From contig SUSY01000006.1 in NCBI GenBank assembly GCA_015063185.1, positions 2,703-66,702 on the forward strand: a stretch of DNA of 64,000 nt. The letters are read 5' to 3'. Within the stretch, counting starts at the first letter, position 1. The number at the start of each line of letters is the position of its first letter. Below, piece by piece: positions 10,353-61,792 of the stretch. The notes beneath the pieces are model-generated. The model was not told the origin of the DNA, ran no database searches, and saw nothing but the letters and a program-made list of their open reading frames with translations. This DNA comes from Thermoplasmata archaeon (lineage in GTDB: Archaea > Thermoplasmatota > Thermoplasmata > Methanomassiliicoccales > Methanomethylophilaceae). The translations under genes were made by a program, and so were the position numbers.

Positions 10353-11075
10353 ATGGATTCGGTCGAGGTGGAACCCGGATTGAGGGTCACCAATGATAGG
10401 TGCATCATATTTGATGAGGAGAGAGTCATGGTCATAGGCGATCTGCACCTCGGTTATGAGAAGGCTCTGGAGGACGAGGGCATGTATCTGCCCCGCATTA
10501 ATACCGAATCCATAAGGGAGTCGCTCAACCGTCTGATAGAGAAGTATGAGCCGAAAGAGATCGTACTTCTTGGGGACATAAAGCACGATTTCAAACGTGC
10601 CAAATTCGAAGGGAAGGAGGAGGTACGTTCGATAGTTTCCTTGATCCGTGATGCTGCCAAGGTAACGATTGTGAAAGGCAATCACGATAATTATGTGCAG
10701 AACATCGTGGCGGATATGGGGATCCCGGTGGTGGACCATGTCGACATCGGTGGATACCGGTTGGAACATGGGCATGTGGATTCTGGGGTGCGCCCTGTCA
10801 TCATAGGTCACGAGCATCCGTCTGTGAAAATCATCGGAGCGCTCTCGGGCGGTCTGAAGATGCAGTGTTTCATATATGCGCGTAAGGAAGGCGTGTTGGT
10901 TCTGCCTCCGTTCAGTTTTCTTTCATCCGGAACCGACTTCGCCACGTCCTCGGATGATTTCATGTCTCATGCCTGCCGTAGTGCGGATATGGGGGGAGCA
11001 GAGCTGTACGGTATCTCCGAGCTGGGGCTGATAGACCTGGGGATATTATCCGAAGTCTCTAATCTACGTATTTGA
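10353..11075 (+). CDS. calcineurin-like metallophosphoesterase (small archaeal SbcD/Mre11-related family)
   Basis: 240 aa with GDLHLG, LLGDIKHD, GNHD, EHGH and GHEHP motifs. Confidence 0.75.
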   Translation: MDSVEVEPGLRVTNDRCIIFDEERVMVIGDLHLGYEKALEDEGMYLPRINTESIRESLNRLIEKYEPKEIVLLGDIKHDFKRAKFEGKEEVRSIVSLIRDAAKVTIVKGNHDNYVQNIVADMGIPVVDHVDIGGYRLEHGHVDSGVRPVIIGHEHPSVKIIGALSGGLKMQCFIYARKEGVLVLPPFSFLSSGTDFATSSDDFMSHACRSADMGGAELYGISELGLIDLGILSEVSNLRI

Positions 11076-11090
11076 TTGTATGATAGATTA

Positions 11091-11100
11091 TTTTATATAT
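11091..11100 (+). promoter_or_regulatory. TATA-box candidate for the corrinoid-protein gene (implies a 5' UTR of about 85-90 nt)
   Basis: ttttatatat lies in an A/T-rich context about 113 nt upstream of the ATG at 11213. A GGAGGAA RBS sits at 11201-11207. Confidence 0.35.
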
Positions 11101-11212
11101 TGATTTGAGTGCCCTTTCTATAAGATATGGATATAGTAACCATCCATCAGAGCCTTTAAGTCAAACAAGCGGAATTAACTATCCACAACCTCACAAGGTT
11201 GGAGGAATTACA

Positions 11213-11851
11213 ATGAGCGCAAACATGGACGCATTGGTTGACATTGTTGTCAAGGGAAAGATTAAGGACGCAAAGGCAGCAACCCAGGCATGCCTCGACG
11301 AGGGAATCGACGCAAAGACCATCATCTTCGACGCACTCTCCAAGGCAATGGGAATCGTTGGTGACCTCTACGCATCCAAGAAGTACTTCCTTCCCCAGGT
11401 TCTTCTCGCAGCAAACACCCTCTACCAGGGACTCAACCTCTGCCTGCCCCTCCTCGGAGGAGACGGAACCGCATCCAAGGGAACCGTTGTTATCGCAGTC
11501 GTCGAGGGAGATGTTCACGACATCGGAAAGAACATCGTTAAGGCTATGCTGACCGGACTCGGACTCAACGTCATCGACCTCGGAAAGGACATCCCAATCA
11601 AGGACATCGTCGGAACCGCAGTCGACAAGGGCGCACAGATCATCGCAACTTCCACTCTCATGACTCCTACCCTCGCTGGAATGAAGCAGGTTGAGGCAGA
11701 CCTCAAGGAGATGGGAAAGAAGGGCGCAATCAAGACCATGATCGGTGGAGGAGCAACTTCCAAAGAGTTCGCCGACCAGATCGGTGCAGACGGATGGTCC
11801 TACGACGCAGTCGAGGCATCCCACGTCGCAGCAGCATTCCTCGGAATCTGA
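11213..11851 (+). CDS. methyltransferase corrinoid protein (MtaC/MtbC/MtsB family; B12-binding domain)
   Basis: 212 aa from MSANMDALVD, with an RBS 6 nt upstream. Motifs: GDVHDIGKN (DxHxxG), ATSTL (SxL), MIGGGA (GG). Codon bias is very strong. Confidence 0.9.
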   Translation: MSANMDALVDIVVKGKIKDAKAATQACLDEGIDAKTIIFDALSKAMGIVGDLYASKKYFLPQVLLAANTLYQGLNLCLPLLGGDGTASKGTVVIAVVEGDVHDIGKNIVKAMLTGLGLNVIDLGKDIPIKDIVGTAVDKGAQIIATSTLMTPTLAGMKQVEADLKEMGKKGAIKTMIGGGATSKEFADQIGADGWSYDAVEASHVAAAFLGI

Positions 11852-12062
11852 TTTCGATTTAGGAACCTACTCTAAACCTTTTACTTTCAAACCTCTTTCA
11901 ATGTTCTCCCACTGTTCGTGATTTGATCGTACGAGGGGTTCCACACCTCTCCGTTATGCAATGGTCTTAGGTTCCCGTTTATCCATCGACCTGTGTACCG
12001 TATAACCTCTACACATAAATTATACGGTATTCATATATACGCGCTACACGGTACATTTTCTC

Positions 12063-14273
12063 ATGGTTCAAAGATCAGAGTACGACAAATGGGTCCAAGA
12101 ATGGATCGAGAAGGAGAAGGCCGGAGGAAGAAAATGTTTCGACGTTAAGAAGGCCGGCAATTCCTACTACGTGTACTATCAGACGACTAGATACAATCCG
12201 ATGTCCAAGAAGAGAGAGAAGGTTTCTGGGTATCTTGGAAAATTGGTCGAAGGCGTTGGACTTGTCGAACCTGATACATACAGTGATGATTTCGAAAAGG
12301 TATCTGTAGCCAGATATGGTCTCGGAATCGATACGGGAGGATCTTTCACGGATGCAGTCATCATAGATCTGGATGATAACACCGTTGTTGCCAAGAGGAA
12401 GTCCCCCACCACACATGACAATCTTTCCATCGGTCTTTATAAGTCCGTGGATGCAGTGTTCAATTCGTGTGATATCCGGCCACAGGATATCTCATTGGTC
12501 GGAATATCGACAACTTTGGCCACCAACTCTGTCTTGGAGGGTCATGGAGGCGAGGTCGGCCTTATCCTTATCGGATGGGATCCAAAAGAGGAGGTCTACT
12601 TTGGTGAGAAGAACCAGGCGAAGGTGAAGGGTGGCTGTGATAGCAACGGTCGTGTTGTGAGTCCATTGTCCAAGGAAGAGGTCACCAAGGCCATCATGGA
12701 AGTGTCCCAAGGCGTGGATGCCATTGCGATCTCAGGTTTGTTCGCAGTAGCCAATTCCGCACAGGAGAAGAAGGTCAAGGATCTCGCCATCCAGCTTACT
12801 GGTTTGCCAACTGTTGCGGGTCATGAACTCTCCGCAGCACTCGGTATCGATTTGAGGGCGGAAACGGCCGTTCTTAACGGTAAACTCATCCCCATTGTCA
12901 CAAAGTTCTTCGATGATGTCGAGAAGACATTCAGAGAAAAAGGAATCTCCGCTCCGATTATGGTCTACAAGGGAGACGGATCCGTCATGACACTTTCGGA
13001 TGCAAAGAAATATCCTATCCAGACTATCCTTTCCGGCCCTGCTGCCAGTTCTATGGGAGGAAGGGTCCTGTCTGGTCATGAGAACTGTATCATGGTGGAC
13101 ATTGGAGGTACATCTACCGATATCGCGGTCATGGAGGGAGGATTCCCGCAGATCCAGTTCGAGGGAGCGTCCATTGGAAAATGGAGGACACGTGTCAAGG
13201 CAGTGGATATGTGCACGGTCGCGTTGGGAGGAGATTCCAAGATCGGTCTTAACGGGACCAGATTCGTCCTGGGACCTGATAGGGTGGTGCCCCTCTGTAC
13301 TTTCGTCCAGACCCATCCTGGTCTTATCGAGAGGATCAAACATTCTGAGATCTATGAGTACTATGAGGCACTGCCAAATGTGGATAAGTCCATTCTCACC
13401 GAGAAGGAGAGGCGTATCTTCGATGTCATAGAAGGTCAGGGTGCGCTTAACAAGATGGAGATCGTCAACATGGTAGAGGGTCTTTGGCTCATTGATAATG
13501 AGCTCGATTCCATGGTGAAGAAGGAGGCTCTCATCATCGCTTCTCTCACCCCTACCGATGTCATGGTATTCCTGAAGAAGTTCCAGCTTGGGGATTATGC
13601 AGGGTCTGAAGCAGGAATCACCGCATTGTCCGCAAGGATTGGTATGAGTAAGAAACAGGCTGCTGTGGCCGTATTCGATGAGATCAAGGCACAAATCGCA
13701 GAGGTCGTCATGACGAAGATGTTGGACGATGAGTTGAGGAATTGGGACGATCGCGGATCCAGAGTGATGCTCCGTAGGATGATCACAACCAAGCGTGATG
13801 GATTCATGAGTATGTCCTCTAAATTCTCCGTACCTATCATCGGTATCGGTGCACCATCCAAGTACATGATGGAGGATCTCGATGAACGTCTCAATGCCGT
13901 CGTGGAGTTCCCCGAACATAACGATGTGGGTAATGCCGTGGGAGCTGTTTCCAGTAAGCTTGCAGAGTCCCTTTCTGCTACTATCACTCCGACACCCGAT
14001 TACAGGTTCCTCGCAAATATCCCGTTCGCTGGAGCAGCATATTATGCACACCTGGACACTGCCGTGGCGGCAACTCGCAGGTGGCTGGAGTCCTATCTTG
14101 AAAAGAATCTTGAGGCTGCAGGTGCCAGAAACATCGTGAAGTCTTCTAAGATCAAGACTTACATGGCAACAGAAGGCGGTGTCGGCGATTGGGAGGATGA
14201 GACCATCGCGAGGACTGTGAACTTCGTGGAAGTCATCTCCAGGGTAGTCGGTGATCCACCGGAGATTCGTTGA
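12063..14273 (+). CDS. hydantoinase-A/oxoprolinase-A-like ASKHA ATPase with an extra ~85-aa N-terminal domain (no B subunit nearby)
   Basis: 736 aa with GIDTGGSFTDAV, TTLATNSVLEGHGGEVGLILIG and VDIGGTSTDIAV. The N-terminal segment is KKAGNSYYVYYQTTRYNPMSKKREKVSGYLGKL. Confidence 0.75.
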   Translation: MVQRSEYDKWVQEWIEKEKAGGRKCFDVKKAGNSYYVYYQTTRYNPMSKKREKVSGYLGKLVEGVGLVEPDTYSDDFEKVSVARYGLGIDTGGSFTDAVIIDLDDNTVVAKRKSPTTHDNLSIGLYKSVDAVFNSCDIRPQDISLVGISTTLATNSVLEGHGGEVGLILIGWDPKEEVYFGEKNQAKVKGGCDSNGRVVSPLSKEEVTKAIMEVSQGVDAIAISGLFAVANSAQEKKVKDLAIQLTGLPTVAGHELSAALGIDLRAETAVLNGKLIPIVTKFFDDVEKTFREKGISAPIMVYKGDGSVMTLSDAKKYPIQTILSGPAASSMGGRVLSGHENCIMVDIGGTSTDIAVMEGGFPQIQFEGASIGKWRTRVKAVDMCTVALGGDSKIGLNGTRFVLGPDRVVPLCTFVQTHPGLIERIKHSEIYEYYEALPNVDKSILTEKERRIFDVIEGQGALNKMEIVNMVEGLWLIDNELDSMVKKEALIIASLTPTDVMVFLKKFQLGDYAGSEAGITALSARIGMSKKQAAVAVFDEIKAQIAEVVMTKMLDDELRNWDDRGSRVMLRRMITTKRDGFMSMSSKFSVPIIGIGAPSKYMMEDLDERLNAVVEFPEHNDVGNAVGAVSSKLAESLSATITPTPDYRFLANIPFAGAAYYAHLDTAVAATRRWLESYLEKNLEAAGARNIVKSSKIKTYMATEGGVGDWEDETIARTVNFVEVISRVVGDPPEIR

Positions 14274-14279
14274 ATACCA

Positions 14280-14296
14280 ATGCCCCTCTGGGGCAT
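14280..14296 (+). terminator. stop-proximal GC hairpin (ATGCCCC-tct-GGGGCAT)
   Basis: Perfect 7-bp stem starting 7 nt after the TGA at 14271-14273. Confidence 0.4.
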
Positions 14297-14424
14297 ACAA
14301 ACAACTTATTAACTTTTCGATACCATCCCCTCTACCGTCTGGGAGTATTCGTTTAACGGCGAGAATCACGATAAAGAGGATTATATAGGGTGAACCCAAT
14401 CCCAATCTTAAGGAGAGATATATC

Positions 14425-15453
14425 ATGTCAATGACTCCCAGAGAAAGAGTTCTCGCTGCAATGAAGCAGGAAGAGCTCGACAGGCCCCCAGTGGCAGTTT
14501 TCACCCAGTCTGCAACCGTTGGAGAGATGGAGAACTGTGGCGCAGCATGGCCCGAGGCTCACTCTGATGCAAAGCTCATGGCTAAGCTCGGAGCAGCACA
14601 GGCAACCTACTACGGATTCGAGGCTGTTAGGTCCGCATTCTGTCTCACCGCAGAGGCAGAGAGGCTCGGATGCATGGTCGACCCCGGAAAGATCAACTCC
14701 ACCCCCATGATCAAGAAGCACCCCTTCAAGTTCGATGCAATGGAGGACGTCTACGACGAGCCCAACCTCATGGATCCCGAGGAGTTCCTCAAGGGAGGAC
14801 GCCCCGCAGTCGTTATCGAGGCAACCAAGCTCCTCAAGGAGCAGTACGGCAACGAGTACGCTGTCATCGCAGGAAACACCGGACCCTTCACCCTCGCAGG
14901 TCACATGGTCTCCACCGAGAACCTCGTTTTCGGAATCATGATGAACCCCGAGATGGTCATCAAGTGGATCGATGCAGTCAACCCCATCGTCAAGGCATAC
15001 TCCCAGGCACTCGCAGACGCAGGAGCAGACATCATTCAGATGTCCGAGCCCTCCTCCTCTACCGACCTCCTGTCCCCCGACATGTTCACCGAGTACTCCG
15101 GTAACTACGTCAAGACCTCTCTCGCATGTGTCAACGGAGCAGACTCCGTTCTCCACATCTGTGGTGACACCTCCGAGATCATCCCCCTCATGGCAGACAC
15201 TGGTGTCACCGGTATCTCTGTTGAGGAGAAGGTCGACTCCGAGGCAGCAGTCAAGATTGCAGCAGGACGCGTCGCAACCGTCGGAAACGTCGGTGTCGTC
15301 AACCCCCTCCTTCAGGGAACCCCCGACGACTGTGCAGCAGCAGGAAAGAGAATCGCAGCAGCAGGATTCAACGTCATCTCCCCTGGATGCGGTCTCTCCG
15401 CTCTCATCAAGGACGAGAACCTGTTCGCACTTGTCAAGTCCATCAAGGGATAA
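14425..15453 (+). CDS. methylcobamide:CoM methyltransferase (MT2; MtaA/MtbA/MtsA family, URO-D fold)
   Basis: 342 aa. MTPRERVLAAMKQEELDRPPVA N-terminus, with HICGD and SPGCG as putative Zn ligands. RBS AAGGAGAG. Codon bias is very strong. Confidence 0.85.
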   Translation: MSMTPRERVLAAMKQEELDRPPVAVFTQSATVGEMENCGAAWPEAHSDAKLMAKLGAAQATYYGFEAVRSAFCLTAEAERLGCMVDPGKINSTPMIKKHPFKFDAMEDVYDEPNLMDPEEFLKGGRPAVVIEATKLLKEQYGNEYAVIAGNTGPFTLAGHMVSTENLVFGIMMNPEMVIKWIDAVNPIVKAYSQALADAGADIIQMSEPSSSTDLLSPDMFTEYSGNYVKTSLACVNGADSVLHICGDTSEIIPLMADTGVTGISVEEKVDSEAAVKIAAGRVATVGNVGVVNPLLQGTPDDCAAAGKRIAAAGFNVISPGCGLSALIKDENLFALVKSIKG

Positions 15454-15584: not shown

Positions 15585-16148
15585 ATGACAGTTCTCACAC
15601 TTGAAAATCTGAAGAAAATGGAAGTTATTTCTCAGGATGCATATAATATTGGAGAGGTCTTGGATGTTCGTTATGATGCATCTAATTGGGCAGCGGAGGG
15701 ACTCAAGGTCAAGTGTACCAAGGACGTCTCCAATATCATCGGAGCAGGTTCCAGTAAATCCATGATCATCGTTAAACCGCCGATGTTCCAGATGCATGAC
15801 GTCATCCTCATTCCAGATACCGTGGAGGATGCCAGACCCTACATTCATGCCGATTCGGACGCATTGGAGGTCGTTTCCAATCTAGAAGGTAAGAAAGTCT
15901 ACACATGTGATCAGCAGATCGTCGGTACCATCGAGGTAGTCAATATCGATACTGCAGCTTGGGCGATCCATTCATTCGTTGTGAGGCTTGATAAGTCAGC
16001 ACATGATCTTCTGGGCATCAAGAAAGGTCTTGGATTCATGACGAAATCCGTTTCAGGACTTACTGTGGGTCATGTGTCAACCGTATCAGAAAACGTTTCC
16101 CTGACCTTGACCATTGATCAGGTCAGGGATGTTGTAACGATAGTTTAG
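15585..16148 (+). CDS. tandem PRC-barrel domain protein
   Basis: 187 aa with two PRC-barrel-like halves (LKKMEVISQDAYNIGEVLDVRYD... and LEGKKVYTCDQQIVGTIEVVNID...). The stop is TAG. Confidence 0.55.
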   Translation: MTVLTLENLKKMEVISQDAYNIGEVLDVRYDASNWAAEGLKVKCTKDVSNIIGAGSSKSMIIVKPPMFQMHDVILIPDTVEDARPYIHADSDALEVVSNLEGKKVYTCDQQIVGTIEVVNIDTAAWAIHSFVVRLDKSAHDLLGIKKGLGFMTKSVSGLTVGHVSTVSENVSLTLTIDQVRDVVTIV

Positions 16149-16747
16149 GCCACATCATAGGCAACCAGGATCGATGCCAATTTGGCATCATCCGGTAGCC
16201 CTCTGTGTTCACGAATCATCTTGTCACTGGTGGGTGCAGGGCTACACGAAACAACGTTCTTGCACCCATTGGATAGGTTGAGCTCAGGGAAGGATACTGG
16301 GGGCATGACGAATGCCTCACTACTTCCCTCACTGGGTATTACATCGAGGAAGACGACGAATCCATCGGATACCATGAGACAACCTTCTTTTCCGATATAC
16401 TGGTCCTGAGTATCGGGAAAAACCTCTACCCCTAGAACCTGTCCATCACTGCATTTCAGAATGACCGTGGGTTCTGGTGGTGGTCTGAAACGTGGATCCT
16501 TGATGATGCAGATGACCTTCTCACGTTTGAGTGCCTCGTTGAATCCTTCGTTGTTGACGGCAGTTCCCGTACCTGGTGATGTGACGGTACTCTCTTCTTC
16601 TTTGACCTTATCGAGGATCTCCTGATCGAGATAGAACGCTTCGCGTACTCCTCTCATTCCTTTGATGATCTCCAAAGGTAGTTCGTTCGACATGTGTGTC
16701 ATATCGTCATAAGTATGTTTATACTTGATTATCTGGCACCTTGTCAT
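16145..16747 (-). CDS. hypothetical protein
   Basis: 200 aa. It has an ATGA start/stop overlap with the upstream gene at 16744-16747. I recognise no family. Confidence 0.5.
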   Translation of the reverse strand: MTRCQIIKYKHTYDDMTHMSNELPLEIIKGMRGVREAFYLDQEILDKVKEEESTVTSPGTGTAVNNEGFNEALKREKVICIIKDPRFRPPPEPTVILKCSDGQVLGVEVFPDTQDQYIGKEGCLMVSDGFVVFLDVIPSEGSSEAFVMPPVSFPELNLSNGCKNVVSCSPAPTSDKMIREHRGLPDDAKLASILVAYDVA

Positions 16748-17721
16748 TTCTTGTTCAGAGGGTAGACATAGTTGTCATAAAGGTGTGATGAGAACAGTTC
16801 TTTCATGTCCACGACGCCGACGGATCCGATGACTGTTCCGTCGAGATCTATAGGGGTGACAATGACGCGTATTCCCTTGTATGGGCCACTTTCAGCGATC
16901 TTTCTATAGGTCTTTCCTGTCTGGATAGCTTCTTCAAGAACAGCACCACTATATGCATTGTCGATGACGACGCCATCTTCGATCCTAATACCCAGATTGT
17001 TCTTACTCTTGGCACAGACCGGCAACCCTCCTACAAGTTCATGTATTGCGAACGCGAGTGAGATCAATTCATTGGTGTTGCTTGACGACGATAGGATTCC
17101 GTGGAGTTCCTTTTTGAACTTCAATCCCCCTATTAATGATAGGGCAACGGATATCGCACCCATTTCTGCATTTTCAGGTGTGTTGGATGTACCGATGATG
17201 ATGACGTCCTCCTCTTTCAATCTGAAAGTCTTCTGGAACAGTTCCTGGACATCCTCATCGACGACATGATCCGTTCCAGGGAACTTGAGTTTTCCATCCA
17301 CATATATCAATGTCGTGGCACCTCTGGCACCATTCCTCAGTGCAACATCGCTCTCCTCGGATCCATATTTGATCCTCTTAGATGCACGAGGTACCTTCAC
17401 CGCACAGTCGTAGTCACTGATGGTCATGCTGCCTATGTTTAGGTGGGCCATTTCCATAACGACACCATTACGGACCTTCTCCCCTTCCTCGGATAGGTAT
17501 ATGCCAGTCTTGTTCGTGAATGTGCAACCGTACTTTTCCAAGAGTGCAAGGAGAGTACGCGTGCTACCCTCTCCGATTCCAAGTTGTTCGGATAGCCTCT
17601 TACGACCTACCGGTATGAACTGGTCGAGACACATAAGTGCCTTCCAAATGTGGTAATCGGAGAACTTAGCTGCGGAACCTGGCCTTCTTCCGGTCGCATG
17701 GTGCATGGATAGGAATGCCAT
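16744..17721 (-). CDS. archaeal winged-helix domain protein (possibly DUF4443/DUF2111-type; unverified)
   Basis: 325 aa. The N-terminal wHTH-like segment is VGRKRLSEQLGIGEGSTRTLLALLEKYG. The C-terminal domain is ...GGLPVCAKSKNNLGIRIEDGVVIDNAYSGAVLEE...GIRVIVTPIDLDGTVIGSVGVVD. Confidence 0.5.
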   Translation of the reverse strand: MAFLSMHHATGRRPGSAAKFSDYHIWKALMCLDQFIPVGRKRLSEQLGIGEGSTRTLLALLEKYGCTFTNKTGIYLSEEGEKVRNGVVMEMAHLNIGSMTISDYDCAVKVPRASKRIKYGSEESDVALRNGARGATTLIYVDGKLKFPGTDHVVDEDVQELFQKTFRLKEEDVIIIGTSNTPENAEMGAISVALSLIGGLKFKKELHGILSSSSNTNELISLAFAIHELVGGLPVCAKSKNNLGIRIEDGVVIDNAYSGAVLEEAIQTGKTYRKIAESGPYKGIRVIVTPIDLDGTVIGSVGVVDMKELFSSHLYDNYVYPLNKK

Positions 17722-17793
17722 CCATCTGATAAAAACATTGGACTCCTTGAAAACCTACCAGAATAGAAGGTTTTTCGTATGAATAGTGCATTT

Positions 17794-17823
17794 TTAACGT
17801 CGATTAGATTTAACGACGGTTAA
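17794..17823. promoter_or_regulatory. imperfect inverted repeat (TTAACGTCG-n11-CGACGGTTAA) abutting a TATA-like box (TTAATATTA, 17820-17828) in the divergent promoter region
   Basis: Read directly from the sequence. It lies 50-90 nt upstream of the atwA start and about 75-100 nt upstream of the divergent wHTH gene. Confidence 0.35.
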
Positions 17824-17886
17824 TATTACGCGCGCGACAAATAGGGTTACCATTTCCTTTAATAGGGCCTCGTGCATTTTCCATCC

Positions 17887-19509
17887 ATGTCAGATACTGG
17901 AGTCGAACTTCTTAAGCTTGAGAATGTTACCAAGTCTTTCAATGGAAAGGTCGTTCTTGATAACATTTCAGTCACTTTGAAGACCGGAGAGATCCTCGGT
18001 CTCATTGGAAAGAGTGCAGCAGGAAAGAGTGTTCTCATCCACATGATCAGGGGTTCCGAAGGATACAAGCCCGATTCTGGAAAGATCCTCTACCATGTCC
18101 GCCGTTGTTCTGGATGCAACCATCTCGACATCCCCATCAGCGAGGGGGTCTGTCCCCACTGTGGAAAGGAGATGCGCGATGAATGGATTGACATGTGGGC
18201 CCTCAAGGACCGCGATGCGACCAGGACATCGCTCCACATGCGCATCTCTATCATGCTCCAAAGGACCTTCGCACTCTTCGGAGACGACACTGTCCTTGAG
18301 AACATCTATGAAGCCATGCCTGATGGGATGGAGGATCCCGATAAGGTCAAGAAGGCCATCGAACTCCTCGAGTTCGTCAATATGACGCATAGGACCACCC
18401 ACATCGCTCGTGACCTTTCAGGAGGGGAGAAGCAGAGGGTAGTCATGGCAAGGCAGCTTGCAAAGCAGCCTCTCTTCTTCCTTGCAGATGAACCCACCGG
18501 TACCCTCGATCCGTATACCGCGAATCTCGTTCATGAAAGGCTAGTTAAGTACGTCAGAGAGCACAACATCTGCATGGTCTTTGCATCCCACTGGCCAGAT
18601 GCAATCGTCAAGATGGCAGACACCGCAATCTGGCTGGATGCAGGAAAGGCACTCATGCAGGGTGATCCGACCGCAGTAACTTCCAAGTTCATGGAGGAGT
18701 ACAAGTTCGATAAAGGTACCGTTCACAATGTCGGAGAGACTCTCATCAGACTTGACAATGCAAAGAAGCACTACTTCTCTGTCGTCAGAGGAGTCGTCAA
18801 GGCTGTCGACGGAGTCACATTCGATATCAAAGAGGGAGAGATCTTCGCACTTGTAGGATTCTCCGGAGCAGGAAAGACCACTACCTCCCGTATGATTTCC
18901 GGTATGACTCCTGCTACGCAGGGTAAGGTCGAGATCAAGATCGGAGACGAATGGATCGATATGAGCGATCCCGGAGAGGGAGGAAAAGGAAGGGCGACCG
19001 CATACATCGGAGTCCTTCATCAGGAGTTCACCCTCTATCCCTTCGATACGGTCCTCATGAACCTGTCATCAAGCATTGGAATCAAGATGCCTGCGGAACT
19101 CGCCAAGGTCAAAGCCATTCAGGCATTGATCAGTGTCGGATTCCCCAAGCAGGGAATCGAGGACGTTCTCCAGGCACAGCCCGGTTCCCTCTCCGTGGGA
19201 GAGAACCAGAGGATCGCATTCGCACAGGTCCTCATCAAGGAGCCGAAGATCGTCGTTCTTGATGAGCCTACCGGAACGATGGACCCGATCACCAAGGTCA
19301 CCGTTGCAAAGGCCGTTCTCAAGGCAAGGAAGGACCTCAACGAGACATTCATCGTTGTCAGTCACGACATGGATTTCATCCTCAACTGCTGTGACCGCGG
19401 TGCACTCATGAAGGACGGAAAGATTCAGTACCTCGGTCCCGCAGACATCCTCGTCGAGAAGCTCAAGGAAGTTGAGAAAGAGATTCTGGATGCCGGTGGA
19501 GAGCTATGA
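17887..19509 (+). CDS. atwA: methyl-coenzyme M reductase system component A2 (double ABC ATPase)
   Basis: Two NBDs: GKSAAGKS / LSGGEKQR / FFLADEPT, and GFSGAGKT / LSVGENQR / VVLDEPT. A CxxC...CxxC insert (CSGCNH...CPHCG) sits in NBD1. The ORF opens at 17872, and the MSDTG start at 17887 is preferred. Confidence 0.9.
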
Positions 19510-20129
19510 AGCAGAGGATCGGAAGACATCTCAGTTTCGTGGAGTGCAGGGAATCTATGGGAATGGGCCAGGGAGGTGGTCTCGCTCAGAGGGCGACCAT
19601 CTCCGAGAGCGGCAAGGATGTCGTCGCCATCGCGATGGGTCCTGGTCGTAGGCACATCACCAAACCTGTATGTGAGATCACATATGCGTTGCGTGAGGAG
19701 GGGATTGATACCTCCGTCCTCGTTCTCAATGCAGGTGCAGGCGTTCCGGCAGATGCTCCCGACATCACCCACGGACAGTGCATGGGATTGGATCCCATAG
19801 AGGTGGAGCGTATCCAACAGTTCAAGGTCGCATTGATCCACCTCGGAAATGTCAGGAGCCATATCATTTGGAAGGCAAGACTCATCCTGAGGAATGTCAA
19901 CATCCCCGCGATCCTGGTGACACAATGTCCCATCGATTACGAGGACCTTGCTGCCATCGGTGTCAGGACCAAGTATGTCATGCCTGATGATGAGAATATC
20001 AATTCCAAAGGATGTGTAGAGGAGATCGTTACCGGGGTTATCAGAGGAGTCTCTTGTCCTCAGGACAAGTTGGATGAGATCGTCTCCAAGGTACTGAACA
20101 TGATGCCTGATAGGAGGGATGGTCAATGA
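19506..20129 (+). CDS. mcrC: methyl-coenzyme M reductase operon protein C
   Basis: 207 aa. [17 protein letters not shown]...[41 protein letters not shown] matches McrC closely from memory. ATGA overlap with atwA. Confidence 0.93.
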
Positions 20130-21640
20130 TTGTTACCATCAATGGTACTGAATACACTTTCAAGGAGGGGGCAACACTCGGGGATGCCGTGTCAATGGTG
20201 GATTACGAGCCTGGGACCGTCGTCTCCGTCTTCAAGTCCTCCGAGTCTCTCAGGACGGAGTCCGAGGATTTTGAGGTCGTGACCACCAGAGGAAGATTCC
20301 ATATCCATCTCGATGAAGGTATCCACGGTCAATTATGGAAGTCGAAGACAGAGGAGATATCTGGATCCACCGCAAGGTGGGTCACACATGATATCGCAGC
20401 ATTCGGTTCGTTCGTTACGGACATCCCTGTTGATCGTACCGTGTCCATGTATCGCAAATACGATTGTTTCTTCTCGCTCGGTGGTTTTGATAGCGCCACC
20501 ACGTACATGATGATCGCCCGTGATGACCACCGTTCCAACTATGGAACGGGCGGGATAAAAGTCGGAAGGGTAACACGTGGAAGGCACGTCCTAGATGATT
20601 TCCGTGAAGGGGACAGGATCCTTTCCATCGGACCCGTCATCTCCGAGAGTCAAAAGGACAATTTCGTCCTCACATCCGATCTCAAATACAAGTTAGAGGA
20701 TGGAAACAGGGTTGAGACCTGTGTAAGGGTCAAACTCGATATGACCTCTCCGGAGTCTGCGGAGCATCTGATGATAGTCGCTCAGAAGGGATATCTCAAT
20801 GTATCCAGTGCGACGGGAAGTTACATCGCAGTCGATGATGACATGGACATTACGTTCAAGTCAGAGTCCAAGGCTGTAAGGGAAAAGGACGGTGTGTTCG
20901 TTCGTAGTACAGGTGTCGGTGTAGGGCGCATATTCTTCTATAGGGAAAGGAGACAGATGTTGGAGAGCCATAACCACATCGGAGATGTGGTCATGGGTTC
21001 ATCGATCATCTCTTCCGTCAAACCTGGAGATAAGATCAAGGTCGAAGTGGATCCACCAAGGCTCATGGCCGTCGGAATGAATATGTACGATGGAATATCA
21101 CTCATGGAGTCCGCAGGAATCAAGGTCACACGTGGTGGAGAAATGGGCGATGACGCAGTCATCGTCGAGCAGAGTCCAGAGAATACCGTAGACATTCTCA
21201 ATAAAGGCGAGGTGGTCCTATTCGGAGTTGACAGGAAATCCATCTATAGGATCGAGCTCAACCGTAAGAAAGAGGCCGATGTCCACTACTTCGAGAAGCT
21301 TACAGGGCTCAATCACAAGCCTGTCGGTATGCTCAACGTCCATTTCTGGTTCCCAGGAATGTCCATGGTCACATTCAATGGTGATGAGGAGAAGGGTAAG
21401 TCCCTGTATCCTGGAGAACCGTTCAAGAAGTGCAAACGCGGGGACATAGGTCTCACGAATCAGGCTTGTGACCATAAGGGTCTAGTCGGTATCAGGATGG
21501 CTGACAGTAAGGAATTCGGACCTACCGGAGAGGAACCGTTCGGCACCAACATATTCGGAAAGTTCGTCGATGACCTGAAGCGTTTCGAGGAGACTCTCGA
21601 GGAAGGAGAGGTCGTCTATGTCACGGAGATGGAAATATGA
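20126..21640 (+). CDS. methanogenesis marker protein 3 (Mmp3)
   Basis: 504 aa. Size and position in the conserved atwA/mcrC/mmp cluster fit Mmp3. The N-terminus [22 protein letters not shown] looks beta-grasp-like. ATGA overlap with mcrC. Confidence 0.65.
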
Positions 21641-22059
21641 GTGATGAGAGGGAGACCAGATTGCTAATGATCAGTCCCGCATCCAGGCTCACGCCTGAGA
21701 TGTTGGCCCGCACTATCCATTCCATGGGTGTGGATGTTGCTCTTAAGGAGACCTGTTATGGTTGTCTGATCGAAGGAAGGCGTGAAGCCGTCCTCGAAGT
21801 CACTAGGAGGGCAAGAGGCCTTCAGGGCAATTCAGTATTCTCCAAGAGGAGAGCATACAGGATGGGCGACCCCGTCAGATGTCGTGCACAGCACGGAACA
21901 AGGCCCGGATTCAGTCAGCTTGAATCCGAATGGGTCGCATTGCCCTATATCGAGGCAGGATTGGATGCCATCGATAGAGGAGAGAAATACAAGAAAATCC
22001 CGGCTAAGGAGAAGTTGCCGGTCGACAAACTCATTGAAATTTGCGAGGTGAAATTGTGA
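21637..22059 (+). CDS. methanogenesis marker protein 6 (Mmp6)
   Basis: 140 aa. Assigned from size and cluster position. ATGA overlap with mmp3. Confidence 0.55.
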   Translation: MSDERETRLLMISPASRLTPEMLARTIHSMGVDVALKETCYGCLIEGRREAVLEVTRRARGLQGNSVFSKRRAYRMGDPVRCRAQHGTRPGFSQLESEWVALPYIEAGLDAIDRGEKYKKIPAKEKLPVDKLIEICEVKL

Positions 22060-22490
22060 AGGTATTCATCGATCCGCCGAACAGTCTTATCCTGTTCGAT
22101 CTGGTGGAAAGATTCGGACACGAGCCGCTCAGCACCATGGCGGCATTGCAGGAAAGGATTGACAACATCGAGGTGGACATGCCTCCCATGAACGTTACTC
22201 TGGATGATGTGGTCAGAGGACTCAAGTATGCAGGAATCGAGGTCCCCTCAGGTGTGAGGGGAAGGCTTGCGGTCTGGGGTCCGATGATCGAGGAGGCGGA
22301 TGCGGCGATCATCGTCGACGATCCACCATTCTCCTTTGGATGTGTTGGATGCGAGCGTTCCGAACTCATGGTGAAATATCTGATCAAAAGGCGCGGTATT
22401 CCGATGCTCAGGGTCCCATACCCCAATTCCGAAGAAGAGGGTAAGGTCTTCGTCGGGCAGGTGAAGGAGTTCTTGGAGGGATTGCAGTGA
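22056..22490 (+). CDS. methanogenesis marker protein 5 (Mmp5)
   Basis: About 144 aa from a GTG start that overlaps the mmp6 stop (GTGA). Assigned from size and cluster position. Confidence 0.55.
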
Positions 22491-23716
22491 CCATCAAGAT
22501 TGCACAGTTGTCATGCGGTACGGAGTACAGTAGCGTTCAATACGAGATCGAGAAGGCGGCACGCAGTGTGGGTGCAAAGGTGGTCTATCCTGATGTATCC
22601 GCAGTAGATGTGGAGAATGCCGTGGAGAGGTTCGGATTCAGGCCCCGCTCAAATCAGCTCAAGCTGATGATTGCAAGGGCCGTTCAGCTGGCGGATGGTA
22701 ACTACGCTGCAGATGCAGTGTTCATCACAACCTGCTTCAGATGTGCCGAGGCAGCCCTTGTCAGGAACGAGATCAGAAGATTCATCCAGGAGAACACGAA
22801 CCTCCCTGTGGTCACCTACTCATTCACCGAGAGGTTGAAGGCATCACAGTTGCTCACAAGGATGGAGGCTCTCGTCACGATCGTGACCAGAAAGGAACTC
22901 CTCGCAAGGGAGAGGCAGGCAGGAATCACTGCAGGATTGGATTCCGGTTCTTCGACCACCAAGGCCGTCATCATGCAGGATAACAAGATCATAGGTAAGG
23001 CATGGACGCCATCCCACAATGTCGTGGAGTCCGCGACATTCGTCCTCAACGAGGCTCTGGCACAGGCCGGTCTGGAGTACAAGGACATCGAGGCGATGGG
23101 AACCACAGGATATGGTCGTTTCACTCTTGGAGAACACTTCAAGGACAAGGTCAAATTGATCCAGGAAGAGCTCACAGTCAACTCCAAGGGTGCTGTGTGG
23201 CTTGCAGATAGGCAGAGGGGAGAGGCAACCATCATCGATATTGGAGGAATGGATAACAAAGCCATCACCGTTCGTGATGGTATCCCGGACAACTTCACAA
23301 TGGGTGGAGTCTGTGCGGGTGCATCCGGTCGTTTCCTTGAGATGACCTCCAGGAGGCTCAAGATCGACGTCACACAGTTAGGTGCATTGGCCGATAAGGG
23401 TAACTGGAGGAACGCCAAGATGAACTCCTATTGTTCAGTCTTCGGTATTCAGGATCTGGTCACCACTCTCGGAGATGGAAAGAGCTTCGAGGATGTCGCT
23501 GCAGCCGCCTGTCACTCTGTAGCAGAGCAGGTCTACGAGCAGCAGCTTCAGGAGATCGATGTCAGGCACCCGATCATCCAGGTAGGAGGTACCTCGCTTA
23601 TTTCCGGACTTGTCACCGCAGTCGGTGAGGTCCTTGGAGAGAAGCCTATCGTTCCCGCTGATTCACAGTTCATCGGTGCGGTTGGAGGAGCACTCCTCAG
23701 TTCAGGATTCCTGTGA
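22487..23716 (+). CDS. methanogenesis marker protein 15 (Mmp15; BadF/BcrA/HgdC-type ASKHA ATPase)
   Basis: 409 aa with [36 protein letters not shown] and QVGGTS. GTGA overlap with mmp5. Confidence 0.7.
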
Positions 23717-23725
23717 GGTCTAGAG

Positions 23726-24304
23726 ATGCAGATCGATGTCGTCTGTGATGATATGTATGGGGGAGAGGCATATGCCAAGCTCTTCGAGAACATCATCGGA
23801 GATATCGGAAAGTCATTCATGATCGTCAAGGCGAAGTTGGTCCTCAAACCCGAGGTCCCTCTGTTCATCTTTTCGGTCATCCTGAAGAATGCACCTGGGT
23901 GCAAGGTCATGTCCGAGGCAGCATCATTCAGGCAGGAGGGTGACGAGTTGTACGTGTCCATCTCCAACGAGCGTTATGCACCAGATGTCCTTTCCAACCT
24001 CTGGAAGACATATGGGCGCCCCAATGTGGATCAGAACACCAGGTTCGATCTGGTGGTCCGTGGTGCCAAGCAGGAGGATGTGGAGAACATGGTCATTTCC
24101 TCAGGAGAGGAGGCTGTCGAGGAAATCCTTGGTGCTTTTTGGAGGGCATTACCCGAAGGGATCCGTGTAAGGGATGCGATGATCGACGGAAAGGTCATCA
24201 CAGTCATTGCAACGGAAGAGATCATGGTGAAGGAGCTGAAGGATGAAGGTGTCCTTGTCCATGAAGGTATGATCAAGGAAGGGGAGGCGATCCCTGATGT
24301 TTGA
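23726..24304 (+). CDS. methanogenesis marker protein 17 (Mmp17)
   Basis: 192 aa. Assigned from size and cluster position. This is the only junction in the operon with a spacer (9 nt, containing a GAGGT RBS). Confidence 0.5.
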   Translation: MQIDVVCDDMYGGEAYAKLFENIIGDIGKSFMIVKAKLVLKPEVPLFIFSVILKNAPGCKVMSEAASFRQEGDELYVSISNERYAPDVLSNLWKTYGRPNVDQNTRFDLVVRGAKQEDVENMVISSGEEAVEEILGAFWRALPEGIRVRDAMIDGKVITVIATEEIMVKELKDEGVLVHEGMIKEGEAIPDV

Positions 24305-25223
24305 AGTCATGATGTACGATGGCGGAGTATACCGTTCCGCAGAGCTCTTCGAGGCTATCGAGGATGTAGGAGGAACCGTCCTTCACATGAATCGTAGCGC
24401 ACAGATGCTGATGGTCACCATGTCGATCCCTGAGGAGGATCGCGGTGTCATAGAGAGCATATCTAAGGAAATCGGTGGGGACATTCGTAGTGTCCCACTC
24501 GCGGGTACGGAGATTGCCGTAGTCGGTTGTACTCTGGGAAGGCACCATATGCCTCACCCCGTCTGTGATATCGCAGAGATCATGAGGCAGGGCGGAGCGA
24601 TCTCTGTCGTGATGGGTCTTGCAAGAGGTAGAGGAAAGAAGACGTCCCAGATCTCCAAGAGGGAGATCGAGATCATCGACGAGTACGATGCAGCCGTCTT
24701 CATGTTCGGAAATTTTAAGGATTGTGTCGAGGAGAAGAAGGAGTTGTTGGAGGACATCCATGTGCCAGTTATCCTGGTTTGTGGACCCCAGCCCGATGGG
24801 ATGGAGGATTGTTGCGAAGCTGTCATCTCCGGTGTCGGAAGAAAAGCCGAGAGGATGAAGTCCTCCGATGAGAGGGCGAAACTCGCAGAGATCTCCGATG
24901 CGGTCAACGAAGTTCTGATGCGTAAGAAGAAGCAGTTGGAGGAGGATCCGTTATTCATCCATCCAGCGGAGCTTAAGCTCCTCTTGGAGAACTACGAACC
25001 CATTGACATGTGTCTCAGGCCAGCACCTATCGTCCTTCATTTGGATGGATTGCGTGTGAAGATTCCGTACAGGGAGCATAAGGATTACTTCGACAATCTG
25101 ATCGTGTACGGACGTAAGTTGTCCGAAGTGGCAGACATTGTCGAGTCCAAACTGGAGGACAGCAGCACATTGATCAAGATCAGGACAATGTCCCAGATCG
25201 AAGATATGGATCGCGGCGCATGA
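24297..25223 (+). CDS. methanogenesis marker protein 7 (Mmp7)
   Basis: 308 aa. Assigned from size and cluster position. 8-nt overlap with mmp17. Confidence 0.55.
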   Translation: MFEVMMYDGGVYRSAELFEAIEDVGGTVLHMNRSAQMLMVTMSIPEEDRGVIESISKEIGGDIRSVPLAGTEIAVVGCTLGRHHMPHPVCDIAEIMRQGGAISVVMGLARGRGKKTSQISKREIEIIDEYDAAVFMFGNFKDCVEEKKELLEDIHVPVILVCGPQPDGMEDCCEAVISGVGRKAERMKSSDERAKLAEISDAVNEVLMRKKKQLEEDPLFIHPAELKLLLENYEPIDMCLRPAPIVLHLDGLRVKIPYREHKDYFDNLIVYGRKLSEVADIVESKLEDSSTLIKIRTMSQIEDMDRGA

Positions 25224-25657
25224 GCGTATGTCCAAAGAGGAGGGGCACATACGTGCTCTTCCTCAACTTCCTTTCTGATTTTTCCTCCGATATCGGAGCG
25301 TTGGGTCATATAGATCTTCCAGCAGGTCAGTATTGTTACGTAGGTAGTGCCATGGGCGGTCTGGAACATAGATTGGATCGTCATCTGTCAAAGGAGAAGA
25401 AGATTCGCTGGCACATAGATAGGTTGACGATCGTTGCCGATTCCATGGAGGCGTTCGTATCATATCCTGACCCGGTGCCAGAGTGTGAACTCGCCAGGAT
25501 CGCGGAGGATTCCGGTTGTATTCCTGTATGTCATGGTTTCGGTTGTTCGGATTGTAGATGCGGAACCCATCTGTTCAGTGTCCCTTCGGATGCCAAATCT
25601 GCCCTGTTAAAAAATGCGGCTTTGGAAGCATATGGCCAGTCTTTCTTTACTTTATAG
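25220..25657 (+). CDS. GIY-YIG-like (DUF123-type) protein with a C-terminal Cys cluster
   Basis: 145 aa. RGTYVLFL...GQYCYVGSAMGGLEHRLDRHL...KKIRWHIDRL, then CIPVCHGFGCSDCRCGTH. ATGA overlap with the mmp7 stop. The stop is TAG. Confidence 0.6.
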   Translation: MSVCPKRRGTYVLFLNFLSDFSSDIGALGHIDLPAGQYCYVGSAMGGLEHRLDRHLSKEKKIRWHIDRLTIVADSMEAFVSYPDPVPECELARIAEDSGCIPVCHGFGCSDCRCGTHLFSVPSDAKSALLKNAALEAYGQSFFTL

Positions 25658-25735
25658 GATACGGTCACCCAAATCATTATTAAACTAAATCTTATTCTCC
25701 CACCATTAAGTCACACGTAAGTGGAGGACAATTAA

Positions 25736-27334
25736 ATGAAAGGGGAGAACTTATCTCGCAAAGTCACGCCTGAAATCATTAACAAGCTTCAGGAAATCGT
25801 CGGAATCGACAACGTTAACACGAACGACATGGACAGAATGCTCTATGGTCACGACCTCGCACCTCTGCCCAAGGAGGCAGGTCTTGCCTTCAAGAACATG
25901 CCCGACGTCATCGTCAGGCCCTCTACCACCGAGCAGGTCTCTGCAATTGTCAAGCTCGCATACGAGACCGGTGTCGCAATCGTCCCCCGTGGACAGTCCA
26001 CTTGGGGTCTCGGAGGATCCATGCCCGTCAACGGCGGAATCCTTCTCGACATGGCTTCCAAGATGAACAACATCATCAAGATCGACACCGTCAACATGTC
26101 CGTCAGGGCACAGGCAGGAACCTCCTGGAAGGCAATCCTCGATGCCTGTGAGAAGGAAGGCTTCCTCGTTGGATCCTACCCCTCCAGCTTCCCCTCCGCA
26201 ACTATCGGAGCATGGTTCTCCACTAGCGGAATCGGCCCCGGAGGATACAAATACGGATCCGCAAGGGACAACGCACTCAACATGCAGGTCGTCCTCTCCG
26301 ATGGTACCATCATCGAGACTGGATACGATGCAATCTCCAACAACATGTCCGGATATAACCTCAACCAGCTCTTCGGAGGAGCAGAGGGAACCCTCGGTGT
26401 CATCTGTGAGTGCACCTACAGGATCTATCCCAGGGGAATCGTCAAGCCCGTTGCATACGAGTTCGACCACCTCAGGGACATGGGAGCACCCATCAACGCA
26501 ATTTGTAAGCACCCCAGTGTCAAGCCCCTTCACATCGCATGGTCCGATTACAACCACTTCGAGAACCAGAGGAAGGCAGGCATCCACGCACCTGATGTTT
26601 CCAACCTTCTCCTTGTTACCTTCCAGGGTGACGAGGCATTCGTGAACCTCGAGGAGTCCATCGTCGACAAGTTCGTCGAGGAAGCCGGAGGAAGGAAGGT
26701 CTCCTACGAGATCGCAGAGCACGAGTGGGAGGAGCGCTGCTACGAGTTCCGTGCACGCAGGACTGGAGTAGGTTCCATTCCCGCAGAGGTCGTCGTCACC
26801 AACGACAACTGGGCAAAGTTCGTCGATGAGTGTTATGAGGGTTACAAGGCAATGAAGATGGAGCCCGGAGGAATCATCGGAATGGTCGCAGACCGCAGCA
26901 CTTCCATGTTCATGCCTTACTACTTCAAGGATGACGAGACTCTTCTCGGTATGACTGCATTCGCCTACAACTTCTACATGGGCGACAGGGCGGCCGAGTA
27001 CGGCGGACGTTCCCTCGGTCTCGGTGTCTTCTTCGCATCCAACCTGGATCTCATCCACGATGAGGGTGCAGTCGCTCTCATGAGGAGCCTGAAGACTCAC
27101 CTCGATCCTCATGACGTCATCAACCCCGGACACCTCGTCTGCGGAAACACCAAGTTCGGAATTTCCCTCAACAAGAACATCATGGGTGTTGCATCCAAGC
27201 TCATGTGCGGTGTCAAGAAGATCATGCCCGCTAACAAGACCTTTGAGCGCAACCTCAAGAGGTTCCACTACGATGACATGGAGCACGAGAAGGATCTCTC
27301 CCGTGTTGTCGAGTACGGAAAGGGTACCGAGTAA
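25736..27334 (+). CDS. FAD-linked oxidase (PCMH-type FAD-binding; GlcD / alkyl-DHAP-synthase-like)
   Basis: 532 aa with PDVIVRPSTTEQVSAIVKLAYETGVAIVPRGQSTWGLGGS. GGAGGA RBS. Extreme codon bias, like the methanogenesis genes. Confidence 0.75.
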   Translation: MKGENLSRKVTPEIINKLQEIVGIDNVNTNDMDRMLYGHDLAPLPKEAGLAFKNMPDVIVRPSTTEQVSAIVKLAYETGVAIVPRGQSTWGLGGSMPVNGGILLDMASKMNNIIKIDTVNMSVRAQAGTSWKAILDACEKEGFLVGSYPSSFPSATIGAWFSTSGIGPGGYKYGSARDNALNMQVVLSDGTIIETGYDAISNNMSGYNLNQLFGGAEGTLGVICECTYRIYPRGIVKPVAYEFDHLRDMGAPINAICKHPSVKPLHIAWSDYNHFENQRKAGIHAPDVSNLLLVTFQGDEAFVNLEESIVDKFVEEAGGRKVSYEIAEHEWEERCYEFRARRTGVGSIPAEVVVTNDNWAKFVDECYEGYKAMKMEPGGIIGMVADRSTSMFMPYYFKDDETLLGMTAFAYNFYMGDRAAEYGGRSLGLGVFFASNLDLIHDEGAVALMRSLKTHLDPHDVINPGHLVCGNTKFGISLNKNIMGVASKLMCGVKKIMPANKTFERNLKRFHYDDMEHEKDLSRVVEYGKGTE

Positions 27335-27448: not shown

Positions 27449-28126
27449 TCAGAGGTTGTTTCTGAGTTCGGCGATTGTTGGGTAAACGATGATGTCTGGG
27501 TCTATCTCATACCAATCGTTTTTACCATGTGTTCCGGACGTGACTCCGATAAAACCTGAGCCAGCGGACTTGGCACATTGATAGTCCATTTTGTGATCTC
27601 CCATATACAGGATTTCATTTGGTTTTACACCGATAATATCTGCTAGGCGTCTCATTGAAATCGGATTGGGTTTGGCCTCACTTTCATCATAGTCATCTCT
27701 GGCAACGACACCATCTAAATATTGGGTCATATCGAATTGTGCCAGTGCCTTATCCGCATATGTTCTCCCGCCTCTGGTTAGCACCCCAGTCTTGTAGCCT
27801 TTAGATCTGAGTTCGATGAGTAATTCTTTGACTCCTGGAAATTCTTCTGCATCGTTCAGCCCCTCCATTTCTAGAGCCAACATTTGTGGTGATGTCCTGG
27901 TTCCTATGGCGTCATATTCTTCTTTGGAAATGTTTTCGATAATCCAATCTGCGCCAAGTTCTAAATCAAACTTCTTGCCCCTTTGGCACATCAATTCTTT
28001 TGGAACACCCAGTCTCTCATATTCATCAAAGATGATCTGAGTCATCAGATCATAACGTGGTTTTGTGTTGAGGAGAGTACCATCCATATCAAAACATACG
28101 GCACGGTATTTGGGATCCAAAGGCAT
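27449..28126 (-). CDS. HAD-superfamily hydrolase (phosphatase)
   Basis: 225 aa with the CFDMDGTLLNT (DxDGT) motif I and a GDHKMD motif. Confidence 0.8.
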   Translation of the reverse strand: MPLDPKYRAVCFDMDGTLLNTKPRYDLMTQIIFDEYERLGVPKELMCQRGKKFDLELGADWIIENISKEEYDAIGTRTSPQMLALEMEGLNDAEEFPGVKELLIELRSKGYKTGVLTRGGRTYADKALAQFDMTQYLDGVVARDDYDESEAKPNPISMRRLADIIGVKPNEILYMGDHKMDYQCAKSAGSGFIGVTSGTHGKNDWYEIDPDIIVYPTIAELRNNL

Positions 28127-56141: not shown

Positions 56142-56216
56142 AATGATTCCATTTTTCGTATTACATTATGGTGTCAAATAACTTGTCTTCTCGATATTGG
56201 CTCACCGACGATTCGT

Positions 56217-56963: not shown

Positions 56964-56964
56964 G

Positions 56965-58696: not shown

Positions 58697-58891
58697 GCGA
58701 TATCATCTATATGTGCCATATAATTGTGTTTGGGATATTATAACACGGAATCGGATAATATATGAATTGGGGCACAAGAACGTTCCTCTCCATACGTTAG
58801 GGGTAAGAATATATGGGTCAGATTACCTAATATGGCATATCAGTCGGTCGAAGTTATATCTTTTGAGGTATTCTCTAGGTCAGGTGTATTG

Positions 58892-59332: not shown

Positions 59333-59514
59333 TCATAGGATTGTCCATTGTCATCTCTCCCATTATGATTGATCTGTTCCTCCCTTTTGCTGTTTTTAAA
59401 CGGTAGGTCGCAATCCAATGCACTTCTTGGAATCATAGTTACGATGTACATGTCCCAGAGTAGTTCTTTGTTGGGGTGTATTAGAATCTCGATATATTCT
59501 ACAATCCCAAATCC

Positions 59515-60355: not shown

Positions 60356-60400
60356 AACAGACAGAATGAGCGAACAGTCTAAGCTGACTGCAAGCACTTT

Positions 60401-60424
60401 CGACGTTACCCACACGAAACGTCG
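60401..60424 (+). other. stem-loop (CGACGTT-n10-AACGTCG) in the putative IS right-end / omega-RNA-like region
   Basis: 7-bp perfect stem 46 nt after the tnpB-remnant stop. Confidence 0.3.
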
Positions 60425-60494
60425 GACAGCCACAAGTGATGTTTGTCCGTATGAATTGCGTAACATTAAATCCAATGATGTATGGTTGTGAAGT

Positions 60495-61736: not shown

Positions 61737-61792
61737 ACAATTGGATTGTCTTATTCCTAAAGTAGCCAAATGTATATCATAAACTTCGCAGT

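Follow-up and report, generated by a model that had tools for sequence, protein, structure and literature searches.

A probable methyl-coenzyme M reductase activation operon of family-typical order, with an appended DUF123 gene, in an uncultured Methanomethylophilaceae methanogen

The activation of methyl-coenzyme M reductase (MCR) limits both the production of active MCR in foreign hosts and the inhibition of methane formation. The genes for this activation have been described in several methanogens in different arrangements, and we compared these with a cluster of nine genes found in a 64,000-nucleotide stretch (the window) of contig SUSY01000006.1 from an uncultured archaeon of the Methanomethylophilaceae. 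In "Ca. M. alvus", AtwA-McrC-Mmp3-Mmp6-Mmp5-Mmp15-Mmp17-Mmp7 carry the consecutive accessions AGI85150-85157 (Borrel et al., 2014; PMC4153887, Table 5), and a stretch of about 16 kb holds 13 marker genes, including the mcr operon, in both M. luminyensis and "Ca. M. alvus" (PMC4153887). The "MCR activation operon" of M. acetivorans consists of A2 and six methanogenesis marker protein (MMP) genes (Mmp3, 5, 6, 7, 15 and 17), which were found by reverse transcription PCR to be co-transcribed; its genes are apparently essential and are expressed about 40-fold below mcr (bioRxiv 10.64898/2026.03.18.712670). In M. maripaludis, the genes are scattered (Mmp_0620, 0154, 0421 and 0656) and mcrC is located in the mcr operon (PMC9584954).

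The locus in the window very probably represents the operon for MCR activation in an uncultured methanogen of the Methanomethylophilaceae (Methanomassiliicoccales), in the family-normal order atwA-mcrC-mmp3-mmp6-mmp5-mmp15-mmp17-mmp7 and with a DUF123 gene appended at its end (Table 1). The system itself is already known; the window locus is its normal form in the family, and the arrangement has been tabulated since 2014. The same eight genes stand in the same order in the marker cluster of Methanomassiliicoccales, and there as here mcrC belongs to this cluster and not to the group of mcr structural genes (PMC4153887). On the other hand, no mcr structural gene was found here among the window open reading frames (ORFs) scanned, which were chiefly the largest, and Table 5 of that study contains neither the DUF123 ninth gene nor the divergent DUF2111 gene that were both found here. 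Compared with the seven-gene cluster of M. acetivorans, where mcrC is part of mcrBDCGA and no ninth DUF123 gene has been reported, the present operon includes both mcrC and DUF123. Homologues of A2, McrC, Mmp3, Mmp7 and Mmp17 from the M. maripaludis activation complex (PDB 8S7V, 8S7X and 9H1L; PMC12176620) are all present, whereas DUF2098, which is also included in that complex, is none of the nine products. In two Methanobacteriales loci (L089 and L090), an Mmp3-Mmp6-Mmp5-Mmp15-Mmp17 core has the same order and tight spacing as in the window, but the cluster is without A2, McrC, Mmp7 and DUF123, and a stand-alone DUF2111 gene stands between mmp6 and mmp5; in the window, a divergent gene encodes DUF2111 as the C-terminal domain of a winged helix-turn-helix (wHTH) protein. 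A first-pass annotation of this DNA, made from the letters alone, had stated that the genes are scattered in other methanogens, and this agrees with the unrelated locus tags of M. maripaludis and with the shorter group kept together in Methanobacteriales.

Table 1. Features of the MCR activation locus and its divergent upstream region (window coordinates), with the length of each gene junction and its recurrence in related loci
Feature	Position, or junction length (nt)	Strand	Evidence or recurrence
wHTH (CggR_N / PH0730-like_N) + DUF4443 + DUF2111 gene	16744..17634	-	Pfam; 296-aa gene call; longest ORF to ATG 17721
Operator-like palindrome TTAACGACGGTTAA	17810..17823	.	TTAAC-N3/4-GTTAA, divergent intergenic region
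TATA-like box TTTAATAG, putative single promoter	17858..17865	+	29 nt upstream of A2 ATG
atwA, MCR component A2 (double ABC ATPase)	17887..19509	+	TIGR03269 719.5 bits, cut-off 517.1
A2 zinc-binding motif CxxC-X11-CxxC (CSGC-X11-CPHC)	18106..18162	+	translation, inside first ABC cassette
mcrC	19506..20129	+	TIGR03264 289.3 bits, cut-off 213.5
mmp3	20126..21640	+	TIGR03268 414 bits, cut-off 234.45
mmp6 (DUF2102)	21637..22059	+	TIGR03272 113.9 bits, below cut-off 125.95; Pfam DUF2102 108 bits, cut-off 25
mmp5 (DUF2112), GTG start	22056..22490	+	TIGR03271 210.8 bits, cut-off 140.25; Pfam DUF2112 212 bits
mmp15, BcrAD/BadFG-type activase ATPase with N-terminal extra domain	22487..23716	+	TIGR03286 681.8 bits, cut-off 455.75; TIGR00241 307.9 bits
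mmp17 (DUF2113)	23726..24304	+	TIGR03291 108 bits, cut-off 67.1
mmp7 (McrC-like)	24297..25223	+	TIGR03274 298.9 bits, below cut-off 349.15; Pfam MCR_C 326 bits
Ninth cistron, DUF123 protein	25220..25657	+	Pfam PF01986 79 bits; ATGA overlap with mmp7
A2/McrC junction	-4		same in 34/70 loci
McrC/Mmp3 junction	-4		same in 58/72 loci
Mmp3/Mmp6 junction	-4		same in 71/75 loci
Mmp6/Mmp5 junction	-4		same in 40/80 loci; -1 in 28 more
Mmp5/Mmp15 junction	-4		same in 69/78 loci
Mmp15/Mmp17 junction	+9		same in 48/69 loci
Mmp17/Mmp7 junction	-8		same in 45/67 loci
Mmp7/DUF123 junction	-4		same in 43/57 loci

Each of the eight products belongs to its assigned family, as determined with NCBIfam and Pfam hidden Markov models (HMMs) against their curated cut-offs and with sequence matches to PDB chains. 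The first-pass annotation had described the first product as an A2 protein with two ABC cassettes and a CxxC...CxxC insert in the first of them, had called the second McrC, and had named the remaining six Mmp3, 6, 5, 15, 17 and 7; all of these calls were found to be correct (Mmp6 by way of Pfam, and Mmp7 by way of Pfam and PDB, both being below their NCBIfam cut-offs). A2 carries two Walker A motifs, that is, two nucleotide-binding domains, and the Cys motif lies in the first cassette as described; this zinc-binding motif sets A2 apart from related ABC ATPases (bioRxiv 10.64898/2026.03.18.712670). The sequence matches to the solved complex (PDB 8S7V/9H1L) were strong for A2 (chain K, E 4e-169), McrC (chain I, E 1.3e-68), Mmp3 (chain J, E 2e-67) and Mmp7 (chain H, E 4.2e-53, full-length alignment), and Mmp17 matched chain G with an E of 1.5e-14; the first-pass annotation had placed these five proteins in one activation complex on MCR. 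In M. maripaludis, the ligands of the three [8Fe-9S-C] clusters are C12, H49, C55 and H118 of McrC and H84, C90 and C143 of Mmp7 (PMC12176620). It is clear from the alignments that all of these are conserved: C14, H50, C56 and H119 of the present McrC align with the four McrC ligands, and H84, C90 and C143 of the present Mmp7 are identical to those of M. maripaludis.

To describe the architecture of the locus, every junction was read from the sequence. Nine consecutive plus-strand ORFs span positions 17872-25657, joined by ATGA stop/start overlaps of 4 nt at 19506, 20126, 21637 and 25220, by GTGA overlaps at 22056 and 22487, and by an 8-nt overlap between mmp17 and mmp7 (24297-24304). The sole spacer, of 9 nt, separates mmp15 from mmp17 (23717-23725), so that the gaps range from -8 to +9 nt and seven of the eight junctions overlap. 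The nine same-strand ORFs with their 4-nt and 8-nt overlaps were thus reproduced exactly as first annotated. The single 9-nt spacer was reproduced as well, but the ribosome-binding site that had been placed inside it was not, as the Shine-Dalgarno (SD)-like GAGG straddles the mmp15 stop codon. Elsewhere in the window, 8 of 25 same-strand neighbour pairs were equally tight (9 nt or less) in a crude ORF call; against this background, a run of eight consecutive junctions of at most 9 nt is unlikely to have arisen by chance.

Two start codons needed attention. The longest ORF of A2 begins at GTG 17872, and this start was rejected for ATG 17887 because gene callers predict a protein of 540 residues, the TIGR03269 match begins at residue 14, and a conserved TATA-like box lies 29 nt upstream of the ATG. 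Similarly, the longest ORF of Mmp5 begins at TTG 22041, and this was rejected for GTG 22056, which matches the start of the HMM and had been assumed in the first-pass annotation.

To see how usual this arrangement is, a single genome of each species was searched for related loci with an alignment of Mmp5 sequences as the query, and the best 80 loci were retained; gene order in them was mapped by tblastn of the window proteins. All 80 came from Methanomethylophilaceae or other Methanomassiliicoccales, the closest showing 92% Mmp5 identity, and operons identical to that of the window were found on several metagenome contigs. Wherever all eight genes were present (59 loci), they stood in the order A2-McrC-Mmp3-6-5-15-17-7. 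As both this order and the lengths of the junctions are found again in the related loci, the window locus is typical of its family and not exceptional. A wider profile search with a 17-sequence Mmp5 alignment returned almost only Methanobacteriales among its top 120 matches. Beyond Methanomassiliicoccales, the comparison covers the two Methanobacteriales loci and the cited papers.

Two side observations were made in this survey. In a metagenome-assembled genome from a more distant member of Methanomassiliicoccales (L079, 1-12000), mcrC and mmp3 are split by about 2.4 kb that includes an opposite-strand ORF. The operon was also present on genome records labelled as bacterial (L029, L040, L043, L047, L048, L051, L058, L085, L087 and L088), with labels such as Eggerthellaceae, Prevotella hominis, Bacteroides ovatus, Dialister, Faecalibacterium, Ruminococcus, Acutalibacteraceae, Anaerovoracaceae and Firmicutes CAG:194; it seems that contigs were mis-binned or mislabelled in these public assemblies.

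We then looked for transcription signals. Among 59 regions orthologous to that upstream of A2, the first base of the best TATA-like 8-mer lies at -29 or -30 in 41 and between -35 and -24 in 54. No SD-like motif was found before A2 and, together with the conserved box at about -29, this suggests that the putative promoter gives a leaderless polycistronic mRNA. One transcript for the whole operon appears likely. A scan of the plus strand from 17701 to 26000 with a strict TATA pattern (TTTA-W-A-W-W) gave no match, and only two T5 runs occur inside the operon; the scan is a weak test, because the A2 box TTTAATAG escapes the pattern too.

It could be argued instead that the nine genes are divided among at least two transcription units, such as A2-McrC and Mmp3 to Mmp7, and that their tight spacing reflects genome compaction and not obligatory co-expression. 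The break between mcrC and mmp3 in L079 would fit such a division, as would the Methanobacteriales, which keep together only Mmp3-6-(DUF2111)-5-15-17, and the finding that such tight spacing is shared by about one third of the remaining same-strand neighbours in the window. We consider this unlikely, however, since no junction is roomy enough for an intergenic promoter, the scan described above, weak as it is, showed no TATA-like box, the box before A2, the only position surveyed, is positionally conserved, and the homologous seven-gene cluster of M. acetivorans is co-transcribed.

The stop/start overlaps point to translational coupling, but they do not demonstrate a 1:1 output. The first-pass annotation had gone further and proposed that the overlaps enforce equimolar synthesis of all the products. 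Seven overlaps in eight junctions agree with that proposal, and in the solved structure one MCR half does carry a single copy of each of the five complex subunits. It nevertheless seems improbable to us, as each of cistrons 2-8 (mcrC to mmp7) is preceded, 8-14 nt upstream, by an SD-like motif of its own, which makes independent initiation possible, and as the solved complex contains no Mmp5, Mmp6 or Mmp15. Before the ninth cistron no SD-like motif was found, only the ATGA overlap.

The gene set had further been called complete, and this was overstated. DUF2098 co-purifies with the M. maripaludis activation complex and binds a loop of McrC (PMC12176620). No match to it was obtained among the nine operon products or the other window ORF products scanned; small ORFs elsewhere in the window and the genome beyond it lay outside this search. 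Genes for biosynthesis of the cluster (L-cluster), as well as mcrBDGA, were not found among the window ORFs scanned, chiefly the largest. With DUF2098 outside the operon and the cluster-biosynthesis genes not found in the scanned ORFs, the set is not complete, and this calls for caution in cloning. The locus had also been recommended as a compact template for reconstitution. It is indeed a convenient one-locus set from a gut methanogen, but this is not special to it, being evident from the published Methanomassiliicoccales genomes and from the work on the M. acetivorans operon. What the present analysis adds are the corrected start codons, the probable leaderless promoter and a junction architecture that is conserved across related species-level loci, together with modest new leads in the candidate DUF2111 regulator and the DUF123 ninth gene.

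By analogy with the characterized proteins, the operon products would work as follows. Transcription would start from the single TATA promoter before A2, giving the leaderless mRNA proposed above, probably under the control of the divergent wHTH-DUF2111 protein through the intergenic palindrome. McrC, Mmp7, Mmp17 and Mmp3 would dock on one MCR half, where three L-cluster-like [8Fe-9S-C] centres would relay low-potential electrons to F430 and reduce Ni(II) to Ni(I), while ATP-bound A2 would remodel MCR. Mmp15, the activase-type ATPase, may act with Mmp5 and Mmp6 in a transient or assembly step; Mmp15 has been proposed as a possible transient partner (bioRxiv 10.64898/2026.03.18.712670). Several points weigh against the assignment of the locus as an MCR activation operon working in this way. 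Mmp6 and Mmp7 fell below their NCBIfam cut-offs, although both pass Pfam, Mmp7 aligns over its full length with the solved Mmp7, and the Mmp6 product occupies the Mmp6 position in every related locus. The leaderless start and the operator are argued from conserved position and enrichment, internal promoters may be present within coding sequence, and the published biochemistry of the activation proteins comes from methanogens outside Methanomassiliicoccales.

The divergent gene deserves a closer description. In the loci with a long enough flank, the wHTH-DUF4443-DUF2111 gene is the divergent upstream neighbour of A2. Its C-terminal DUF2111 domain shares 46% identity (E 2e-29) with the stand-alone Methanothermobacter DUF2111 protein encoded between mmp6 and mmp5, which in the Methanobacteriales loci occupies positions 9633-10004 (L089) and 9621-10004 (L090). 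Among the top 120 of 853 DUF2111 homologues, every named match came from a methanogen; no mention of DUF2111 was found in the literature searched. The intergenic region contains the palindrome TTAACGACGGTTAA, and the pattern TTAAC-N3-5-GTTAA, with up to two mismatches, was present in 43 of 59 orthologous intergenic regions, compared with 12.1 +/- 2.5 (maximum 21) in 200 shuffles. The encoded protein is thus a candidate dedicated regulator of the operon, judging from its position and from the enriched palindrome. A bolder and quite tentative reading takes DUF2111 as an unrecognised MCR-activation module, stand-alone in Methanobacteriales and fused to a wHTH in Methanomethylophilaceae, where it would control the divergent operon via the TTAAC-N3/4-GTTAA palindrome; a still weaker extension makes the DUF123 product a lineage-specific accessory of the same system. 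If the module reading is true, the activation machinery would be expressed in response to the signal that DUF2111 senses, which could be an Mmp partner, a cofactor or the redox state, for example. An ORF of 200 codons (16145-16747, minus strand) overlaps the end of the regulator gene by ATGA, and its product had no match in Pfam, NCBIfam, PADLOC or PHROGs.

The first-pass annotation had counted nine cistrons for eight proteins. The eight assignments stood, as shown above, and the ninth ORF, which had been left unnamed, was found to encode a DUF123 protein; its inclusion as an MCR-activation gene was not supported. Its homologues are entered in the sources as "GIY-YIG nuclease family protein" or "Uri superfamily endonuclease", and no NCBIfam match was obtained. 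Pfam presumably places DUF123 (COG1833) in its GIY-YIG clan. Comparison of 32 aligned homologues revealed the invariant residues G9, Y11, Y38, Y40, G42, R51 and E88, which form a GIY-YIG-like GxY...YxG...R...E pattern, as well as an invariant Cys/His motif (C109, C112, C114 and H117). The AlphaFold model of the product was confident (pLDDT 90.9), yet DUF123 gave no sequence match in PDB, and Foldseek found nothing significant in either PDB or BFVD. Its best match in PDB, PsaD (E 0.027, TM 0.27), was rejected as spurious, and the best ones in BFVD were weak (E 0.016-0.03, TM about 0.4), the second-ranked being a T5orf172 protein, which we take to be GIY-YIG-like. Nothing was found for the product in PHROGs, PADLOC gave one marginal match (E 0.004), and the literature search for DUF123 gave only unrelated matches. 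In our reading, the Methanomethylophilaceae operon may have captured a nuclease-like gene at its end.

A role of DUF123 in MCR activation is possible but unsupported. The alternative would make the DUF123 protein a genuine ninth component in MCR activation or maturation in this family, for example a metal-binding accessory subunit and not a nuclease, made together with Mmp7. The gene does follow mmp7 in 56 of 64 loci with enough flank, mostly with the ATGA overlap kept (Table 1), and its translation probably depends on mmp7, since it has no SD-like motif of its own; the invariant Cys/His motif and the confident model with no significant match to a solved nuclease would also fit. These points are set against its absence from about 8 of the 64 loci (in L012, for example, mmp7 is followed by the next gene) and its position in L079, 653 nt downstream of mmp7 with a 185-codon ORF between. 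DUF123 also occurs in non-methanogenic archaea. It is moreover not beside the mmp cluster in the two Methanobacteriales loci and not among the proteins co-purifying with McrC in M. maripaludis, while the family is named for Uri/GIY-YIG nucleases and the residues of the nuclease pattern are invariant. We therefore regard a ninth component as very unlikely and retain the captured nuclease-like gene as the preferred reading.

The remaining observations concern the wider neighbourhood. Upstream, a methyl-transfer set (10353-15453) comprises a metallophosphoesterase, a B12-binding corrinoid protein (11105-11851), a hydantoinase-like protein of 736 residues (12063-14273) and an MtaA-type methylcobamide:coenzyme M methyltransferase (14425-15453); the MtaA and corrinoid proteins upstream of the operon fit a methyl-reducing methanogen. 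Downstream, a GlcD-like FAD-linked oxidase (25736-27334, plus strand) is followed by a HAD phosphatase resembling phosphoglycolate phosphatase (27449-28126, minus strand). The GlcD-like oxidase adjoins the operon downstream in most related loci, with a length of 906-917 residues in some of them compared with 532 here. Finally, the G+C content drops from about 0.50 to 0.42-0.45 at positions 56001-64000, a segment that may be acquired DNA; a protein with a T4-type RNA ligase domain is encoded there at 60495-61736 and an MFS transporter at 61793-62986.

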